A DNA stretch of 46,053 bases. Origin: a plasmid. A model generated the notes under the pieces. That model was not told where the DNA came from and did no database searches. It saw only the letters and a list, made by a program, of their open reading frames with translations. Below are positions 838 to 9,117 of the stretch, piece after piece (positions within the stretch are counted from its first letter, which is position 1; each line of letters begins with the position of its first letter). Position numbers and translations under genes: made by a program. Location: the sequence record NZ_CP037828.1. The stretch is one strand, 5' to 3'.

Positions 838-1164
838 ATGAGTTGTGTTATAAAGTGTGATTTTTGTGGTGAAACAATAGCAGAAATTCTAAACATAAAG
901 GTATTCAGAATTGATGATGAAGGTAATATAATGAGTATCGGAAAAGATGTATGTGACAAATGTTATGACAGATTATTTAGAAGTAACTTGAATAAGAAGA
1001 TGACTAATTATGAAAAGATAAAAAATATGAGCAAAATAGAAATGGCTGAATTTCTTGCAAATGGCGGAAGTGGATGTACTAGTTGTGCTTATGATTTTCA
1101 AGAATGCTTAGGCGGATGTTTAGAAGGTAGAAAAAAATGGCTTGAAAGTGAGGCGATGAAATAA
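838..1164 (+). CDS. Cys-rich zinc-ribbon hypothetical protein
   Basis: N-terminal CDFC...CDKC and C-terminal CTSC...C..GC clusters. Stop overlaps the next start (ATGA). Confidence 0.4.
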   Translation: MSCVIKCDFCGETIAEILNIKVFRIDDEGNIMSIGKDVCDKCYDRLFRSNLNKKMTNYEKIKNMSKIEMAEFLANGGSGCTSCAYDFQECLGGCLEGRKKWLESEAMK

Positions 1165-1700
1165 TGAAAAAGACGTTAATAATCGTAGGAGTAGTTATTT
1201 CAATATTAATTATGTTTGCTTGCTTGTTCTTAGTAACTAAAAATAAAGCAATTGATTTAGAAGAGCAGGTCCAATCAGCAACTGCATCTGTAGAGGTGCA
1301 AGAAAAAAGGAGAATTGATTTAATTAAGAACATAGTAGACTGCGTAAAAGACTATGCTAAATATGAAAATAGAACATTAAAAGAAGTAACTGACATGAGA
1401 GTAAGTGCAAATGATGAATCTATCAAGGAAGCAAAATTAAATATACAAGCAGTAGCAGAGAAGTACCCAGATTTAAAAGCTAATGAAAATTATAAGCAAC
1501 TAATGAGTGAGTTGAGTATAACAGAAAATATGATTGCACAACATAGAGAAAATTATAATATGCAAGTTCGCAATTACAATAAATATATAAGAAAATTTCC
1601 AGCAAATTTAATTCTAAATAGTATGGGATATGAAAAAATAGAATCTAAATATACTGAATATAAAGCAAAAGAGGATGCACCTCAAAATTTATTTGATTAA
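1164..1700 (+). CDS. lemA: LemA family membrane protein
   Basis: N-terminal TM helix followed by the 'LEEQVQSA.ASVEVQEKRRIDLI.NIV..VK.YA.YE..TL..VT..R' LemA signature. Confidence 0.7.
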   Translation: MKKTLIIVGVVISILIMFACLFLVTKNKAIDLEEQVQSATASVEVQEKRRIDLIKNIVDCVKDYAKYENRTLKEVTDMRVSANDESIKEAKLNIQAVAEKYPDLKANENYKQLMSELSITENMIAQHRENYNMQVRNYNKYIRKFPANLILNSMGYEKIESKYTEYKAKEDAPQNLFD

Positions 1701-1711
1701 GAGGTGCACAT

Positions 1712-2518
1712 ATGAAATTTAAAACTTTTGAAATAACTAAGAGAGAATTTTTAGTGAGCATAATAATTGCTTGCATGATGATTGTGCTTGGATTTTTCAT
1801 TGATGATAAAGTTCAATCAAAATTTTTAGAAGATAATGAAAGATATTACAAAGCAACTAAAATAAATAATGACAAAGATCTCTTTGATTATGCTATGGAA
1901 ACAAGTGCGGGAGATTCTTTGATAAGTGGAAGATTTAAAAGTGTAGATTCTGTATCTATAGAAGAATTAAAAGGGGACTATTGGTTTATAGAAAGAACGG
2001 AAGAAAAATACACTATGCATACTAGAGTGGTTACCACTAAAGACAGTAAAGGCCATTCACATAAATATACTGAAACATATTGGACTTGGGATTACCATGA
2101 TTCAATAGAGAAAAAATGTAATAAATTTAATTTCATGGGTAAAGAGTTTGATGCGAAAGTAATTACTAATTTATCTAAAGAGAGATTGGCATTAAAGAAA
2201 GATATATTTAAAAATAATAATCTTAAAATAAAAGGTAATTATGCTTACATTAATAATAAGAGAAGGTACTATTATGAAGTTATACCGAAAGAATTTAATG
2301 GTACTATGTATGCTAATTTAAAAAATAATACTATAGCGAATCCAGCTGATAAAAACATAAAAGTTTTTAAGGGTGAGTCTATACAGAATGTTTTAGAAAA
2401 TAATAATTTTAATACAGGGTTTTTTAAAGTAGTGTTTTGGATCATCTGGATATTAATAACTACAATCATTATATATGTATTTTATTATTTAAAAAATGAT
2501 TGGCTTGAAGATAAATAA
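1712..2518 (+). CDS. Membrane protein with N- and C-terminal TM helices and a roughly 200-aa exposed domain, partner of LemA
   Basis: Hydrophobic segments 'FLVSIIIACMMIVLGFFI' and 'VVFWIIWILITTIIIYVFYYL'. Tightly linked downstream of lemA. Confidence 0.45.
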   Translation: MKFKTFEITKREFLVSIIIACMMIVLGFFIDDKVQSKFLEDNERYYKATKINNDKDLFDYAMETSAGDSLISGRFKSVDSVSIEELKGDYWFIERTEEKYTMHTRVVTTKDSKGHSHKYTETYWTWDYHDSIEKKCNKFNFMGKEFDAKVITNLSKERLALKKDIFKNNNLKIKGNYAYINNKRRYYYEVIPKEFNGTMYANLKNNTIANPADKNIKVFKGESIQNVLENNNFNTGFFKVVFWIIWILITTIIIYVFYYLKNDWLEDK

Positions 2519-2542
2519 AGATGTAAGAGGAGAAGATCAGGT

Positions 2543-2803
2543 ATGAAATGTAAGGTGTACCATGCTATTAAAAATATAAAAGATGCAAATGAGTTAATTG
2601 ATAGATTTGAAACGGAAAATATATTCTTTGAATTAAATAACATAGATAATGAAAATGTCTTAAATGGAGAAATGGATTTAACTGATATAGAAGATATTGC
2701 ATCATTGCAATTTATATTAGATGGAGATTTATTTATATTTAGTAGTTGTGATGAAATGATATTTATGAATAAATACACTCAAAGGGAGTTGGGACTTCAA
2801 TAA
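2543..2803 (+). CDS. Hypothetical protein whose last 12 codons are duplicated downstream of the HNH gene
   Basis: ORF ends 'MNKYTQRELGLQ*'. A near copy 'MNKYTQKELGLQ*' lies at 3438-3476. Confidence 0.4.
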   Translation: MKCKVYHAIKNIKDANELIDRFETENIFFELNNIDNENVLNGEMDLTDIEDIASLQFILDGDLFIFSSCDEMIFMNKYTQRELGLQ

Positions 2804-3445
2804 ATGAATAAGAGAATAGTATGTCAAGATACAAACGAGATTGTCTATAATTATAAAGAATATCAAAAAACTAAACACTGGGAATCATTAAAAAATGAAT
2901 TCTATTTTTCTAATGAATGTAAATGTGTTTTGTGTGATTCAGTAAAGAAAGTGTCTTTGCATCATAAAACATATCGAAGAATAGGAGCGGAAGAATTGGA
3001 TGATTTAATTCCATTATGCAATAGTTGTCACTATAAAGTTCATCGAAATAATAAACAATATCTATTTAATAAGGCAACGGAAAAACAGATAAGATGCATA
3101 AATGATTTATTGGAAGTTTATGTAGATATTGTGGAAGAATTATTTATGAATGAATATATTTATCTTTATGTTGCCATGGGAATAGAATTTTACAATGAAA
3201 ATCTAATGTTATTTGAAGCAAATCATATTATCAATGATCTTAAGTTTGTTTCTGCAATGCTGTATGAGTTTTATGCCACAAAGTTGGAAATAAAACTTCC
3301 AGGATATTTCAATGGATTTGACTACGAAGAAATAAAAGATTCTTTATATAAAAAGATGCAGCGATTAAGTAAATATATTTATGTTCCCAAAAAACAAGAG
3401 ATTGAGTTATTATTTAAAAAAAGAAAAAAGGAGCATTATGAATAA
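2804..3445 (+). CDS. HNH endonuclease, free-standing and homing-type
   Basis: 'C.LCDS...LHHKTY...DLIPLCNSCHYKVH' HNH/zinc motif. Gene is bracketed by 45-bp direct repeats. Confidence 0.7.
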   Translation: MNKRIVCQDTNEIVYNYKEYQKTKHWESLKNEFYFSNECKCVLCDSVKKVSLHHKTYRRIGAEELDDLIPLCNSCHYKVHRNNKQYLFNKATEKQIRCINDLLEVYVDIVEELFMNEYIYLYVAMGIEFYNENLMLFEANHIINDLKFVSAMLYEFYATKLEIKLPGYFNGFDYEEIKDSLYKKMQRLSKYIYVPKKQEIELLFKKRKKEHYE

Positions 3446-3499
3446 ATATACTCAAAAAGAGTTGGGACTTCAATAAATGAATGAGGGGAGATACTAAAG

Positions 3500-3985
3500 A
3501 TGGATTTAAAGTTAATTAGCAGCATACCTAATTGGAAGGTAGAAGATCAGTTGGCAAAAATTGATGAAGAGGTAACTGAGTTTAAAAATGCTATAGATAC
3601 AGGAATAACTAAAGATATAATTGCAGAAGGATTAGATGTTTGTCAAACTATTTTAACAATGTTTCAAGTTTTAGAAATAGAAAACTATATTACTGAAGGA
3701 GTAGAGACACATAATAAGAAACTAAATGGAAGAGGATGGGATCTCAAAGAAATAGGAGACGATATACTTAATTTAATTAAAAATTCAATGATTAATGAAT
3801 TGATTAATATGAACAAGAAATTAAAATGCCTTGATGAAAAAGAATTTAATGCAAAAATACAATTTTTAGATGTAGATAAACTATGGAATTTGTGCATGCC
3901 TTTAGTTAACTTAAGTACTATAAAAGGAGTTAATGAAAGCATTGATGAAATGAAAATGGGAGAGTTTCTAAAAAATATTAATTAA
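3500..3985 (+). CDS. Hypothetical protein
   Basis: ORF preceded by a GGGGAG RBS. No recognisable motif. Confidence 0.35.
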   Translation: MDLKLISSIPNWKVEDQLAKIDEEVTEFKNAIDTGITKDIIAEGLDVCQTILTMFQVLEIENYITEGVETHNKKLNGRGWDLKEIGDDILNLIKNSMINELINMNKKLKCLDEKEFNAKIQFLDVDKLWNLCMPLVNLSTIKGVNESIDEMKMGEFLKNIN

Positions 3986-4004
3986 AGTAAGGAGATAATA
4001 TAAT

Positions 4005-4262
4005 ATGTTGATAGAAGTAACTGAAAATAATAGAGAATTAAAAGTAGGAGATATTGTTGAAATTAATGGTGGTAATAAGTTATATATGATTCTTTCTTTA
4101 AAGGAAACAATAGGTGGGTATGTTATTATAAATATGCAGAATGGATATGGTTCATTTGGTGCTTATAAAAGTTTAAGTCAACTAGAATTAGACTTGAAGG
4201 TAAGAGGTTATAAATTATATAGTTCTGATGATTACAAGTTGCAATTAGTGCCTAGAGAATAA
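4005..4262 (+). CDS. Hypothetical small protein
   Basis: ORF preceded by an AAGGAG RBS. Confidence 0.35.
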   Translation: MLIEVTENNRELKVGDIVEINGGNKLYMILSLKETIGGYVIINMQNGYGSFGAYKSLSQLELDLKVRGYKLYSSDDYKLQLVPRE

Positions 4263-4370
4263 GATATATTTCAAAAAAGAAAAAAAGGAGCATTACTTCA
4301 CACTCCTGCTTGTCAAAATTCTAAAACCGTTATCACAACATCATTATAACATAATTAGGAGTGTGAGGTA

Positions 4371-4814
4371 ATGCAATCTAGCAAAAAAGACAATTTGTTT
4401 AGTAGTGCAGAAGGTAAGTTATATAATTATAAAAAAATAAAAGCGGAAATAGAAAAAATAGACATTGATATGCAGATGATAAAAAACGACTACAGAGGAT
4501 GTAGTGGAGTTGAAATTAAAGAAAAGACAAGCAAGACATATGATATTAAAAGTGTAATTGAAATAGAGACTGAAGAAAAAGAAAAGAAAATTGCCTTAAA
4601 AGAAAAAGAGAAGAGACATAAAGAGTTGATAATAGAAAAAATAGATAATGCAATGAAAATATTAAGTGAAGAAGAAAAAAAGATAGTACAGTATAAATAC
4701 TTTTCAAGTAGCAGGACATCTTGGGAATATGTTGGCAGAATGATTGGTTTTTCAGCGAGTAAGTGTAAGCAAATGAGGTTTGATATTATAGATAAGATAA
4801 AAGGATTGCTATAA
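4371..4814 (+). CDS. ArpU-family / sigma-70 region-4-like late transcriptional regulator
   Basis: About 147 aa, charged, with a C-terminal region-4-like HTH 'SWEYVGRMIGFSASKCKQMRFDIIDKIKGLL'. Lies just upstream of the packaging genes, as ArpU homologues do. Confidence 0.45.
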   Translation: MQSSKKDNLFSSAEGKLYNYKKIKAEIEKIDIDMQMIKNDYRGCSGVEIKEKTSKTYDIKSVIEIETEEKEKKIALKEKEKRHKELIIEKIDNAMKILSEEEKKIVQYKYFSSSRTSWEYVGRMIGFSASKCKQMRFDIIDKIKGLL

Positions 4815-4817
4815 AAA

Positions 4818-4909
4818 TGTCCGATTTGTGACGATTTTAAACCGATTTATGTCTGTTTTGTGTCTAAAAAATGTCCGATTTGTGACCAATTTATGTCTGT
4901 TTTGTGTCT
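4818..4909. repeat. Four direct copies of the 15-bp motif TGTCYGWTTTGTGWC, arranged as two 45-bp tandem units
   Basis: Copies at 4818, 4850, 4873 and 4895, read directly from the sequence. Confidence 0.85.
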
Positions 4910-4932
4910 TTTAATCATGATAAGATTGTATT

Positions 4933-5502
4933 GTGAGAAAAATATATTTAATAAAAATGGCTTGGAATTTACGTTCTAAGTCTTTTTTATTGTCTAGAGA
5001 GGTGTTGAAGATTAAACGTGATATAATAGAAGAAATTTCAAGTGCTGCATATGTACCAGACAATCTAAAGTATTACGACAATGTAATGAGAGAAACTCCT
5101 GGTATGTATGGAAGAGAATGTTCTTTAGATTTTATAAAGAAAAAGCAAGAAAAACTCTTGAAACTAAAAAAGAAGGTTAAGAAAAATTATGATTCTAATA
5201 TTAATAAGATAGACTCATATCTAAAAATTTTAGATGAAAGTATAATTGATGAGTCTGATCACGTTGAGTTGGTTGTATTTAAATTATATTTGCAATTAGA
5301 AAATGTTGTAAAAGTAACTGAAACTGTAAATGACTTAGGATTTAGAATAAAGACCAATACTTATGCAAGAGAAAGAAAATATAGTACAAATGATATAACC
5401 TCTATAATCACAGATCCTTTTGCTAATGTAGTTGAAGACTTAAAAATATTGGTGCAAGATAGGCAAAGAAAAAATTATCATGGTAATAAGGAGTGTTTTT
5501 AA
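4933..5502 (+). CDS. Hypothetical protein
   Basis: ORF only. Translationally coupled to the recombinase gene. Confidence 0.3.
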   Translation: MRKIYLIKMAWNLRSKSFLLSREVLKIKRDIIEEISSAAYVPDNLKYYDNVMRETPGMYGRECSLDFIKKKQEKLLKLKKKVKKNYDSNINKIDSYLKILDESIIDESDHVELVVFKLYLQLENVVKVTETVNDLGFRIKTNTYARERKYSTNDITSIITDPFANVVEDLKILVQDRQRKNYHGNKECF

Positions 5503-5505
5503 TGA

Positions 5506-6150
5506 ATGGAAGCACATAGTGGACAAAAAGTTAATCCAATAAAAGATATAGAGGATGTATTTAGACTCTTGAATTTTCTAGAGGAATGGAACGAAAGAAA
5601 TTACTTATTAGCCCTCTTTGGAATGTGTACTGGACTTAGAATAGGAGATATATTAGCACTTAAAGTTGCAGATGTAACAGATATAAAGTTAGATAAAAAA
5701 GGAAAAAAGATAAGAGTGTCTAAGGACTGGATTAGAGTTATAGAAGAAAAAAGAGACTATGATAGAGAAGTTTTCTTATCTGATGTAATAAAGAGTGCTA
5801 TAGAAAACTATACTCAAGATAAACCAGGAGAAGAATTTTTATTTAAAAGTGGCAAGAGGAAGAAATTTAATAGACCTATCCAAACAAGACAAGCAGGAAG
5901 AATAATAAAAGGAGCAGCAAAAAAGGTAGGAATAAAAGAAAATGTTGCAACACACTCTTTAAGAAAAACATTTGCAAGGCATATTTATGATGAAGAAGAG
6001 AATAAGACTTATGCATTAGAACTTATAAGGAAGATTCTAGGACATAAGACAATAGAAATGACTAGAAGATATATAGGAATAGATAAGGATGAAGAAGTAA
6101 AAGCAATAACTAAATTTACTAATAAGTTAAAGAAAAGAAAAAGAAATTAA
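5506..6150 (+). CDS. Tyrosine recombinase carrying only the catalytic domain (FimB/FimE-size, no N-terminal core-binding domain)
   Basis: Catalytic residues R 'TGLRIGDIL', H-x-x-R 'HSLRKTFARH', H 'LGHKT' and Y 'RRYIG' are all present. Only 214 aa. Confidence 0.7.
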   Translation: MEAHSGQKVNPIKDIEDVFRLLNFLEEWNERNYLLALFGMCTGLRIGDILALKVADVTDIKLDKKGKKIRVSKDWIRVIEEKRDYDREVFLSDVIKSAIENYTQDKPGEEFLFKSGKRKKFNRPIQTRQAGRIIKGAAKKVGIKENVATHSLRKTFARHIYDEEENKTYALELIRKILGHKTIEMTRRYIGIDKDEEVKAITKFTNKLKKRKRN

Positions 6151-6364
6151 AATATCTTGTATTTTATCTAAAATTTAATATGTTACGTTTTTCAACAACA
6201 GGACATTATTAGAATGCAAAGAGCCTTAACAATAGAGTTTACAAGGAATAGAATAGATTTATTAAAATGTCTGAAAATATATATTAAAGGTCATTTATTC
6301 AAGGGATTTATAGGGATGTAGATATTTAAATGTTTATTTAGAAGCTGAGTAAAGAGGTGATTAA

Positions 6365-6823
6365 TTGGATGTGAATGAAGTTGAAATAATCGACAGTAGC
6401 TATGAAAAAGGTAAAGAGTTGACAGAAGATCAGTGCAATATGGTAACTCTATTGATTACAGGTACTACAGTAACAGAAACTGCCAGAATTATTGGAGTAA
6501 ATAGAAAAACAATCTATAATTGGATGAATAAAGAGCATGTTAGGAAAGAAATGGACAGACGGAAACAGGAGCTAACAAACCAAGGGAACTTAATGATATT
6601 AAAGGATTTAGATAGTTATATCAACAATATCAAGGAATTAGCTAGTGACAAGAGCGATAAGAGGGTTATGTTGGCAGCCAATCAGTATCTTATAAATCGT
6701 ATATATGGAACTCCTACAAGTACAGTTATACAAGCAGAGGATAATAGTGTTGGCATGGGTATGGATGCAACAGAGATAGAAGCAGCTATAGCTAAGATAA
6801 GAATAAGAACAAGCAAGAAGTAA
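6365..6823 (+). CDS. Terminase small subunit (HTH type)
   Basis: HTH 'ETARIIGVNRKTIYNWMNK'. Sits immediately upstream of the large terminase. Confidence 0.5.
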   Translation: MDVNEVEIIDSSYEKGKELTEDQCNMVTLLITGTTVTETARIIGVNRKTIYNWMNKEHVRKEMDRRKQELTNQGNLMILKDLDSYINNIKELASDKSDKRVMLAANQYLINRIYGTPTSTVIQAEDNSVGMGMDATEIEAAIAKIRIRTSKK

Positions 6824-7377
6824 TTAGATATGAAATAAATCCTGCAAGAATATGTTTTAATTATGTTTGAAATTAATTAAAGCAAAACATATATTATATA
6901 TATATTTACTTTAATAATTAAATCATATATTGTATTTAACTTTAGTTATAGCTAATTTAATAAAATTTAGTGAGACTTAATAATTAAAGTTTCATACAGT
7001 GAAGTGATGTGGATTATTATAGGATATGTGAACCTATTGGAAATGCTAGGTTCTTTTTAACTATGCCGAAAATACATATTTAAGGAATAGTTGAAAGATA
7101 ATTAATAATTCTAATCAAAAAAATATTTCTTGCAAGAAAATAATTCAAAATACTTTAATATATTTATTTTTTTTATTAATAGGGGGTGTCCTTCTATTTT
7201 GAAAAAATTATTTTTTATGGAAAATGAGTTCTAGAAATTTTCTAGCAAAATTTAAAAACCAGAGATGTATTTCAAAGAGGGTGATTTTATTAGAGAAAAA
7301 TTTACATTGTTTATTTTATTAATTGCATTACTCACTGAGCCTAAAAAAATAGAAGAAGTAAGAGGAAGTAAATACGA

Positions 7378-9117
7378 GTGGATAATCTAGAAAGAAATAT
7401 ACAATTAATATTTAGTTATCTAGCAAAGACTTTTATAAGAAATGGAGCATCTATAAAAGATGCTGAAAAAGAAGCAAATGAGATTATAAAAGCCAATTCA
7501 AACAATCTTTGGGGAGTTAATGGTCTCGCTTATCAACTTGGAAAAATAAACCTAGAATTTTTCTGTATGTATTTTATGCAAGACACATATTTACCAAAAG
7601 AAGATAATGCTGCTGCTCCTATAGCTAAAGTTCATCATGAGCTATGGGAAGATATACAAGAATCTATAATTGGAGATGGTTCACAGCAATTAGGAAGAAT
7701 TTATCCAAGAGGGACAGGTAAAAGTGCATTTGGAGATTTAGCGACAACTGTATGGTCGCATTGCTATAAACATAAGACATATACTTTGATTTGCTCTGAC
7801 ATAGGATCTACAGCAGAGAAATTTGTAAAAGATATAAAAAATGCATTACTTGAAAATGAGTATATTAAAAAAGCATTTGGTGTCCTTTTAAATGATAATG
7901 ATAGAAAATACATTTGTAATAGTACTCAACTAGAGCTAACAAATAAAACTTTTATTGAAGCTATATCATCTTCATCACCCATGAGAGGAAGAAAATACAA
8001 TAATAACCGTCCAGATCTTATCATACTTGATGATTATCAGTCAGAAGAAAATGTTAGAACAGAAGATGCTAGAGAGAAAAAATTTAAAAGATTTTCTGAT
8101 GATGTAAAATATGCTGCTCAAAAACCAGTCATAAGAAATGGTAAAACTATAAAAAGAGGAACAACTTTTATAGCATTAGGAACCTTACAACACAAAGAAT
8201 GTTTTTATAGTAGACTAAAAAATTTACCAACTTGGAAGTTTAAATGCGAAAAAGGAGTTTTAGTTGATAATGTAGATGAATTATTTAATTCTGGTTTATG
8301 GCTTAAGTTCAAAGAGATCTTATTTGATTTTAAAAATACAAATCATCTTGAAGATGCTAAAGAATTTTACTGGGAAAATGAAAAAGAAATGAAATTCCCT
8401 ATATTATGGCCAAGTTTTTGGGATTGTTTAGATATGGCTCTAAGTTATTATGAAAATCCAACATCTTTTAAGCAGGAAGTGCAAAATGATGTCAATTCTA
8501 TAGGAGAAAAATGGTTTAAAACTGTTAGAACAGAAACTAGAGAAGAAATTGAATCGCATACTTTTAAAAAGACAATGCTGTTATGTGATCCAGCATCTGC
8601 GGGTGGGTCGAAACATGACTATAGCGCTTTTCTTGTTGGAAGTGAATCAGAAAATGGTTTACTATATGGAAGATTGGCAGAACTAGCTAAAATAAATGCT
8701 AGAACTGATTTTGATAAATATATAGACCATATGATTTATTTATTAAAAGTGTATTCAGATATAACACATATTTATATAGAAAAAAATACATTTAATGGCG
8801 CAGATGCCAACCAATTAGAGTTTAAAATAAAAAATGATAATGTTCTTAGTTATAGAGATATAGAAATCATTAATGAGCAACAAAAGAAAAATAAAGATGA
8901 TAAAATCTCTACTTTAATACCTGTTTTAAGCAAAGGCCAAATGATTTTTGCAGAAGAAGATAAGGAATTTATACAGCAAATACTTGATTTTACAGGACAA
9001 AAATACTCTCTACATGATGATGCTCCGGATATATCATCGGAATTTATTAATCGAATTAACAACATAAAAGTTTCTGAGACAGTAAATATCTTTGATAGAA
9101 AATTATTAGGTTTTTAG
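7378..9117 (+). CDS. Terminase large subunit
   Basis: Walker A-like 'YPRGTGKS' and Walker B 'LIILDD', with a C-terminal nuclease region. GTG start preceded by an AGAGGAAG RBS. Confidence 0.85.
   Translation: MDNLERNIQLIFSYLAKTFIRNGASIKDAEKEANEIIKANSNNLWGVNGLAYQLGKINLEFFCMYFMQDTYLPKEDNAAAPIAKVHHELWEDIQESIIGDGSQQLGRIYPRGTGKSAFGDLATTVWSHCYKHKTYTLICSDIGSTAEKFVKDIKNALLENEYIKKAFGVLLNDNDRKYICNSTQLELTNKTFIEAISSSSPMRGRKYNNNRPDLIILDDYQSEENVRTEDAREKKFKRFSDDVKYAAQKPVIRNGKTIKRGTTFIALGTLQHKECFYSRLKNLPTWKFKCEKGVLVDNVDELFNSGLWLKFKEILFDFKNTNHLEDAKEFYWENEKEMKFPILWPSFWDCLDMALSYYENPTSFKQEVQNDVNSIGEKWFKTVRTETREEIESHTFKKTMLLCDPASAGGSKHDYSAFLVGSESENGLLYGRLAELAKINARTDFDKYIDHMIYLLKVYSDITHIYIEKNTFNGADANQLEFKIKNDNVLSYRDIEIINEQQKKNKDDKISTLIPVLSKGQMIFAEEDKEFIQQILDFTGQKYSLHDDAPDISSEFINRINNIKVSETVNIFDRKLLGF

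Follow-up and report, generated by a model that had tools for sequence, protein, structure and literature searches.

The locus and its host element

The window, by which we mean the whole 46,053-nt stretch of plasmid DNA analyzed here (record NZ_CP037828.1), contains a 213-aa HNH nuclease ORF between two small genes, X and Y, with a copy of a short direct repeat on either side of it (Table 1). Judged by its gene content, the window is a Clostridioides difficile phage-plasmid of ~46 kb that belongs to the group including pCDBI1. It encodes terminase, portal, major head, tape-measure, and endolysin proteins as well as partition and replication-initiation proteins, and positions 2300-4300 are 100% identical to circular 47-kb C. 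difficile plasmids such as p840101_1 (NZ_CP132147.1). Phage proteins, plasmid maintenance proteins, and identity to circular plasmids together identify the element as a phage-plasmid. The pCDBI1 group has been listed among "probable phages and megaplasmids" (PMC6807378). The G+C content of the region is ~26-30%. The GenBank phage collection contained no close relative, the best match being phiCD119 with 69% identity over 229 nt.

Table 1. Features of the HNH locus, with positions in the window
Feature	Position	Strand	Basis or remark
Gene X, 86 aa	2543..2803	+	ORF list; phrog_4449
Repeat copy 1 (R1), resident copy	2765..2809	+	Sequence; haplotype comparison
HNH nuclease ORF, 213 aa	2804..3445	+	ORF list; Pfam, PHROG, and PDB matches
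A24 piece, AAAAAAAGAAAAAAGGAGCATTAT	3416..3439	+	Copy of the sequence just upstream of the leader helix of the 147-aa gene
Repeat copy 2 (R2), cassette-borne copy	3438..3482	+	Haplotype and junction in the window, L013, and L025
Shine-Dalgarno region GAGGGGAG and gene Y	3483..3985	+	Directly after the single repeat in empty genomes
Gene Y, 161 aa	3500..3985	+	phrog_3770
Native A24/A30 copy (A30')	4270..4295	+	Downstream of the 85-aa gene; repeat and pattern searches

The protein encoded by X ends in MNKYTQRELGLQ*. Its homologues are restricted to Clostridioides phage-plasmids, where all of them carry the MNKYTQKELGLQ tail, and the exact protein was found in 915 contigs. Public C. difficile assemblies contain the gene on more than 2,000 contigs. 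A 67-aa variant of X (P0183) with a 19-residue internal deletion occurs in 14 contigs.

The repeat pair

The two 45-mers, read directly from the sequence, are mismatched at three positions. A pattern search allowing up to three mismatches found the 45-mer at exactly two sites in the window and at none in 100 dinucleotide-preserving shuffles, and a repeat search extended the pair to 59 nt with 86% identity (2754-2812 and 3427-3485, spacing 673 nt). In copy 1, a 39-nt core (2765-2803) forms the end of X, namely its last 12 codons and stop, and the hexamer ATGAAT (2804-2809) forms the start of the HNH ORF, whose ATG directly abuts the stop codon of X (TAAATG). Copy 2 consists of a 12-codon mini-ORF (3438-3476) encoding MNKYTQKELGLQ*, followed by the resident ATGAAT hexamer. 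The initial annotation had described 45-bp direct repeats with three differences around the HNH gene, the first ending the upstream ORF and supplying the HNH start codon and the second being an orphan mini-ORF; the pattern search, the shuffles, and the ORF coordinates bear out this description in full. Absent from it was the observation that the HNH stop codon (TAA, 3443-3445) falls within copy 2.

The length of 45 nt in the window is owed solely to the resident hexamer that follows the X stop codon there, which happens to be ATGAAT and equals the first six bases of the HNH gene. In the other filled lineages (L013-L016 and L025), it measures just 39-41 nt, ATGAAT...CAATAA(AT). We considered whether ATGAAT after the repeat in empty sites is the footprint of a past excision and rejected this reading, as other backbones have ATAATA, ATAGCA, or nothing at this position and there is no microhomology to explain such a deletion. 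Within R1, the window lineage alone has the substitution AAA>AGG (2784-2785), by which K becomes R in X. Three complete plasmid records share the repeat-HNH-repeat structure, and it also occurs in contigs from IMG/VR and in assemblies from Logan and NCBI; such recurrence rules out an assembly artefact.

Folding of both copies and of three empty sites revealed no RNA structure in the repeat (z-scores +0.1 to +0.9), and Rfam gave zero family matches anywhere in the window. The only inverted repeat within the repeat is 4 bp long with a 5-nt spacer (ACTC AAAAA GAGT). A role as promoter was rejected by eye, the -10-like GATACT being located just 5 nt ahead of the ATG of Y.

The HNH protein

On the strength of its motifs and profile matches, the 213-aa protein belongs to the HNH (beta-beta-alpha-metal) nuclease superfamily, within the subclass that has a zinc knuckle of two CxxC motifs. 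Residues 1-85 constitute the zinc-knuckle HNH domain (C41xxC44, H53-H54, D67, C72xxC75-H76, and H80), and residues 90-213 form a helical domain confined to this family; the searches returned no known relatives for these C-terminal ~120 residues. The Pfam HNH model matches with E=5.6e-4 and 20.4 bits, slightly under its gathering score of 21.4, and PHROG HNH families match down to 5e-9, with phrog_8060 aligning across the full length. The HNH domain of IscB in the PDB matches at E=7e-4 with the motif aligned. An AlphaFold model had a mean pLDDT of 60.5 with only 10 sequences and is too weak for a fold search.

Searching 1.8 billion representatives yielded 13,635 homologues of the N-domain (residues 1-85), and the full two-domain architecture was common to P0003 only (37% identity), in which the HNH motif is degenerate and the context is non-phage. 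P0003 is found at L017:1-1202 as two tandem paralogues adjoining a 634-aa HATPase_c_3 protein, an arrangement that is not phage-like. The exact HNH protein was present in 866 contigs. Seemingly truncated HNH proteins of 171 and 162 aa were rejected as variants, as they reflect start-codon choices of the gene caller and their DNA is the same as in the window. No further HNH locus was found with the HNH protein in species-representative genomes or with the HNH alignment in JGI metagenomes, and the repeat pattern detected nothing further in species-representative genomes. In IMG/VR, protein and alignment searches returned no locus beyond the one already known. An essential packaging HNH can be dismissed because near-isogenic plasmids lack the gene and because the terminase genes are 3.5 kb away.

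Empty and filled sites

Relatives without the HNH gene, both among IMG/VR sequences and among PLSDB plasmids, have a single copy of the repeat between X and Y. Empty sites with one copy were identified at no fewer than seven loci on several backbones (L001, L003, L004, L007, L030, L031, and L032); plasmid p830101_1 (NZ_CP132145.1) is an example of a plasmid with the empty site. L001 shows 99.7% identity to positions 1-2812 of the window and 99.0% to positions 3436-7982; its two alignments overlap by one repeat length, and it differs by the absence of the insert alone. Among 17 PLSDB relatives, 3 were filled and 10 were empty, and the remaining 4 (pCDBI1 and ATCC 9689 type) are also without X. 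The inserted cassette is roughly 0.67 kb in size and is positioned precisely after the stop codon of X and ahead of the ribosome-binding site of Y. The HNH ORF involves neither an intron nor an intein and is present or absent at one site among near-identical genomes, which defines it as free-standing.

That the HNH gene is an insertion had been claimed in the initial annotation, with the expectation that an empty site carries a single 45-mer. The claim holds in the form of an insertion polymorphism: near-identical plasmids lacking exactly this insert have the single copy, and the combination that would have spoken against it, both copies in a genome lacking the HNH gene, was not seen in any related genome examined.

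Origin of the second repeat copy

The HNH gene and copy 2 are separated by the A24 piece, the source of which is located ~0.85 kb downstream in the leader of a regulator gene. The leader helix of the 147-aa RinA/sigma-like gene begins with the last bases of this native copy, A30'. A24-like sites number two in the window versus 0.06 expected, and exact 21-mer matches to A24 occur at the native downstream site in L001, L005, L006, and L024. In the window, A24 now codes for the terminal residues of the HNH protein (..KKRKKEHY).

The most complete right end among the relatives was found in L025 (Clostridioides sp. ES-S-0048-02), where the HNH gene has its own stop codon (..ELLIKKKKKM TAG), followed by 17 nt, a 30-mer, copy 2, and Y. 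This 30-mer matches the native downstream site of L007 at every position. The right end of the window type equals that of the L025 type minus 42 nt, which are missing between two AAAAAAAGAAAAA runs; this loss took the HNH gene's own stop codon, and the window ORF therefore runs on into copy 2. L024 has undergone a larger deletion, with the stop codon, the A30 piece, and copy 2 all gone, and carries a W25* nonsense mutation.

The junction between A30 and R2, GGAGCATT|ATGAAT, is common to the window, L013, and L025, which represent three diverged backbones, and so is the R2 haplotype AAATAT at repeat positions 7-12. At the same positions, R1 reads AAATAC in the window, L013, and L024 or AAGTAT in L025, and the haplotype of empty sites follows the backbone (AAATAC, AAGTAT, or AAATAT). 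One illegitimate junction in three backbones indicates a single origin and assigns copy 2 to the cassette, which thus comprises the HNH ORF, a 24-30-nt piece of downstream leader with a Shine-Dalgarno sequence, and a 39-nt copy of the X tail (copy 2). By the evidence of junction and haplotypes, the duplication goes back to a single event and is passed on as part of the cassette instead of being made at each insertion; direct repeats bracket the insert because the cassette carries its own copy of the 39-nt X tail.

In the founding event, a TTAT microhomology may have allowed the end of A30 (..GCATTAT) to be joined illegitimately to the start of the repeat (..ATTTATGAAT), most simply through unequal crossover with a genome having the HNH gene between the repeat and the downstream leader. 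Such a donor, which would be without Y, was not found among the loci examined. The 42-nt deletion between the AAAAAAAGAAAAA runs would have occurred later, in the window lineage.

Divergence of the cassette and its flanks

Synonymous divergence (dS) between the window and L025 is 0.068 for the HNH gene, 0.30 for X, 0.38 for Y, 0.60 for the 147-aa gene (g147), and 0.43 for the recombinase. Between the window and L013, the corresponding values are 0.028, 0.12, 0.20, 0, and 0.18. The HNH gene is thus 3-9 times below its flanks in dS, with the exception of g147 in the comparison with L013, and its nucleotide identity between the window and L025 is 98.0% versus 88.6-94.5% for the flanks. As its dS is below that of the flanks, the gene has moved between backbones. 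The divergence values thereby show movement of the cassette between diverged plasmid backbones and uphold the earlier view of a mobile cassette, lower divergence than in the flanks being expected of a mobile gene. The dN/dS ratio of the HNH gene is 0.10-0.43, in keeping with purifying selection, and the protein has therefore been kept functional.

Shared blocks among the filled lineages stop within ~25-65 nt of the repeat on both sides, the left limit of the shared stretch being located ~25-65 nt before the HNH start and the right limit coinciding with the end of copy 2. These limits match what recombination begun by a break at the site would leave, although they are no proof of it in plasmids as mosaic as these. 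The mosaicism extends throughout the plasmids: the window and L013 agree fully in g147 (100% identity) but show 92.6% identity in Y. Ordinary recombination could also explain the low divergence of the HNH gene.

Of the nine substitutions in the first 7.5 kb that are private to the window, four are located within ~170 nt of the cassette (2639, 2784-2785, and 3523). This clustering could reflect target-site immunity or repair errors; it is suggestive, and the numbers are too small to use.

A probable homing cassette

On balance, and with some reserve, we favor the view that the insert is an HNH gene of the free-standing kind that probably encodes a homing endonuclease and forms a selfish cassette inserted after the stop codon of X and provided with a tail that rebuilds the upstream context of Y. 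The cassette would spread by homologous recombination, with X and copy 1 serving as the left arm of homology and copy 2 and Y as the right arm. Most likely, recombination would be triggered by the HNH protein cutting the empty site, i.e., by homing. The left end of the broken empty site would then prime on X and copy 1, copy the HNH gene, A24, and copy 2, and rejoin in Y. Such left-end priming would give a resident copy 1 and a donor-type copy 2, which is the pattern observed.

The HNH start is without a good Shine-Dalgarno sequence of its own, and the gene may be translated by ribosomes arriving from X through coupling at TAAATG. At the other end of the cassette, the A24 piece sets AAGGAG 4 nt ahead of the ATG of copy 2, and, just as at empty sites, the same TAA closes the repeat 23 nt ahead of the Y start codon. 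This layout suggests that the cassette tail, a Shine-Dalgarno sequence plus a mini-ORF running to the original TAA, would restore termination just upstream of Y. With the native context before Y rebuilt in this way, insertion would cost the host little. The direct repeats would also provide a route to precise loss of the cassette. It is possible, and we put this forward only tentatively, that the cassette is built to be harmless, the coupling from X through the HNH gene and the mini-ORF to Y being kept and the repeats allowing precise loss and re-invasion. If true, this would make it a phage-plasmid counterpart, with opposite polarity, of the fungal mitochondrial elements that combine an endonuclease with a duplicated tail.

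A difficulty for simple homing is that, from the start of R2 into Y, the only difference between filled and empty sites is T versus C at repeat position 12. The filled R2-Y sequence otherwise departs from the empty site only upstream of the repeat, and R1 departs from it only downstream of the repeat. A simple immunity in which insertion destroys the target is inapplicable because filled R2-Y differs at no more than that one base. To spare its own genome, the nuclease would have to read more than ~35 nt across the repeat or recognize the boundary between X and the repeat. Two-domain nucleases with long split sites exist. The degenerate HNH motif and non-phage setting of P0003, the one full-length relative, also speak against homing.

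Alternative explanations

The initial annotation regarded the repeats as the target duplication expected of a homing cassette, so that each insertion would duplicate 45 nt of its target much as a transposon does. An insert flanked by direct repeats, with one copy at empty sites, agrees with this, yet we consider it very improbable. The piece of 24-30 nt from ~0.85 kb downstream that intervenes between the HNH gene and copy 2 contradicts it, as does the shared copy 2 junction. In a transposon-type duplication both copies match the local target, whereas here R2 and the A30|R2 junction are constant in three backbones and the resident repeats vary. Neither terminal inverted repeats nor a transposase were found. 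In homing, the gene is copied by recombinational repair, and target duplication is not produced; a duplication of 39-45 nt also far exceeds, to our knowledge, those made by known transposases. A copy number of one at empty sites would equally result if the filled state were ancestral and recombination between the 39-45-nt direct repeats had deleted the cassette, and the repeat of L001 could be taken for a hybrid that has its left part from copy 1 and its right part from copy 2. There is little chance of this as a general account, as empty sites with their own haplotypes occur in every backbone, even the most diverged ones (L007 and L031), the synonymous divergence of the HNH gene is several-fold under that of the flanks, and A30 is a derived copy of native downstream sequence. 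Individual empty sites may nevertheless be secondary losses. Nor do we give much credence to the repeat being the core of an attachment site, with a small circle of HNH gene, A30, and repeat moved in trans by a tyrosine recombinase. An insert flanked by direct repeats that preserves the 3' end of its target gene and leaves a single copy when empty would suit such a mechanism, and so would the 214-aa tyrosine recombinase gene located 2 kb away in all relatives (5506-6150) and the crossover that the haplotypes place right of repeat position 12. However, the cassette is without a recombinase, the 4-bp inverted repeat with its 5-nt spacer makes a poor core site, the recombinase adjoins packaging genes in every relative, filled or empty, and no circular junction separate from the integrated form was seen.

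Carrying more weight than these, although in our judgment still unlikely, is the possibility that the gene encodes an accessory HNH protein that does not home, serving for example competition, defense, or DNA processing, and that it sits in a region of hypervariable cargo, having arrived by unequal crossover and being exchanged among plasmids by ordinary homologous recombination, with the repeats as a by-product. The gene sets between gene W and the late regulator do vary among relatives: pCDBI1-type plasmids are without the LemA gene, the 268-aa gene, and X, L024 is without the 85-aa gene, and L033 has the 85-aa gene only. Mosaic blocks are frequent in these plasmids, the HNH gene is under purifying selection, and a filled genome retains a near-intact empty-site sequence at R2-Y. 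Against this, the exchanged blocks end tens of nucleotides from the cassette on both sides and in several backbones, and since these ends hug the cassette, a break made at the site is the easier explanation. The decayed copy of L024, with its nonsense mutation and deletion, agrees with the cycle in which selfish nuclease genes are gained, decay, and are lost, and near-isogenic plasmids manage without the gene. The homing cassette stays our preferred reading.

Comparison with known systems

In T4-type phages, Seg and Mob are examples of free-standing homing endonuclease genes. For Cluster J mycobacteriophages, Pope et al. described free-standing HNH insertions, one of them precise and one accompanied by a 35-bp loss that was put down to repair errors (PMC3706429). 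The present locus resembles phage free-standing HNH homing genes in having a nuclease ORF between genes that is present or absent at one site in near-identical genomes, lower divergence than in the flanks, decayed copies, and junctions that are clean or scarred by repair. Unlike them, the cassette adds a 39-nt copy of the X tail and a 24-30-nt piece, hence the flanking repeats, and the filled genome retains a near-copy of the empty site. The C-terminal domain is also unlike theirs in being without known relatives, and cleavage activity is putative here.

A closer structural likeness is seen in fungal mitochondrial mORFs with a carboxy-terminal duplication, described for atp6 of Allomyces macrogynus and for atp6, atp9, cox2, and nad3 of Glomus (PMC3630166). 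There as here, the order is gene core, tail copy, endonuclease ORF, and orphan tail, and the target gene stays intact. In the fungal elements, the upstream, expressed tail is foreign and the native tail is displaced downstream (PMC3630166), whereas in the phage-plasmids the upstream copy tracks the backbone and the downstream orphan travels with the cassette. Unlike the HNH protein, the enzymes of the fungal elements come from other families of nuclease and often take the form of in-frame fusions to the gene. With integrative elements whose att core repeats duplicate the 3' end of the target gene, the locus shares direct repeats of tens of nucleotides, a preserved gene end, and a single copy when empty, but the cassette has neither a recombinase nor a convincing core-type inverted repeat and contains an extra templated piece at one junction. 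The literature searched held no report of the same layout in a phage or phage-plasmid, which is a weak negative.

Much of the mosaicism of phages is credited to free-standing nuclease genes, whose first entry into a new site is rarely visible. The present locus appears to show how a first insertion took up two short stretches of sequence from its neighborhood, and it preserves the stages that surround it: empty sites on several backbones, the fullest cassette (L025), an ORF fused into the repeat (the window), and a decaying copy (L024). These phage-plasmids are widespread in clinical isolates, as the number of contigs with the exact HNH protein illustrates. If the nuclease cuts the empty site, they would offer a simple natural system for studying homing, the cost to a neighboring gene, and cycles of gain and loss in C. 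difficile phage-plasmids.

Variation in neighboring genes

A 1.6-kb module made up of the LemA gene, the 268-aa gene, and X (window 1152-2764) is missing from pCDBI1-type plasmids, including L005 (3900-3990), L006, L020, and the pCDBI1 and ATCC 9689 plasmids. The module junction falls within a 10-nt near-repeat, ATGAAATAAT at 1156-1165 and ATGAAATGAT at 2752-2761. Where the module is absent, the 39-nt repeat before Y is left as an intact orphan mini-ORF, MNKHTQKRLGLQ*. The 268-aa gene is split in L013-L016 (~2908-3715, corresponding to window 1712-2518) into ORFs of 136 aa and 127 aa (or 121 aa), which suggests a frameshift or stop codon in this second filled lineage.

The 85-aa gene (window 3974-4270) is absent in L024 (5800-5837), and the distant plasmid CP103805.1 (L033:3440-3920) has no gene other than this one between W and the late regulator. 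This variation marks the region from W to the regulator as a hot spot for variable small genes.

Farther downstream, the 147-aa RinA/sigma-like gene (4371-4814) is preceded by a leader (4287-4377) that folds into a long helix with -32.2 kcal/mol and z = -6.2, in which 4290-4307 is paired with 4357-4374 and the Shine-Dalgarno sequence and start codon of the gene are buried. In relatives, a local hairpin, AGGAGC...GCTCCT, could compete with this helix. The helix arm carries a G>A substitution at 4302 that is private to the window, and the helix had no match in Rfam. The 214-aa tyrosine recombinase gene is located immediately upstream of the small terminase gene in every relative, and its product may resolve plasmid dimers rather than integrate the element.
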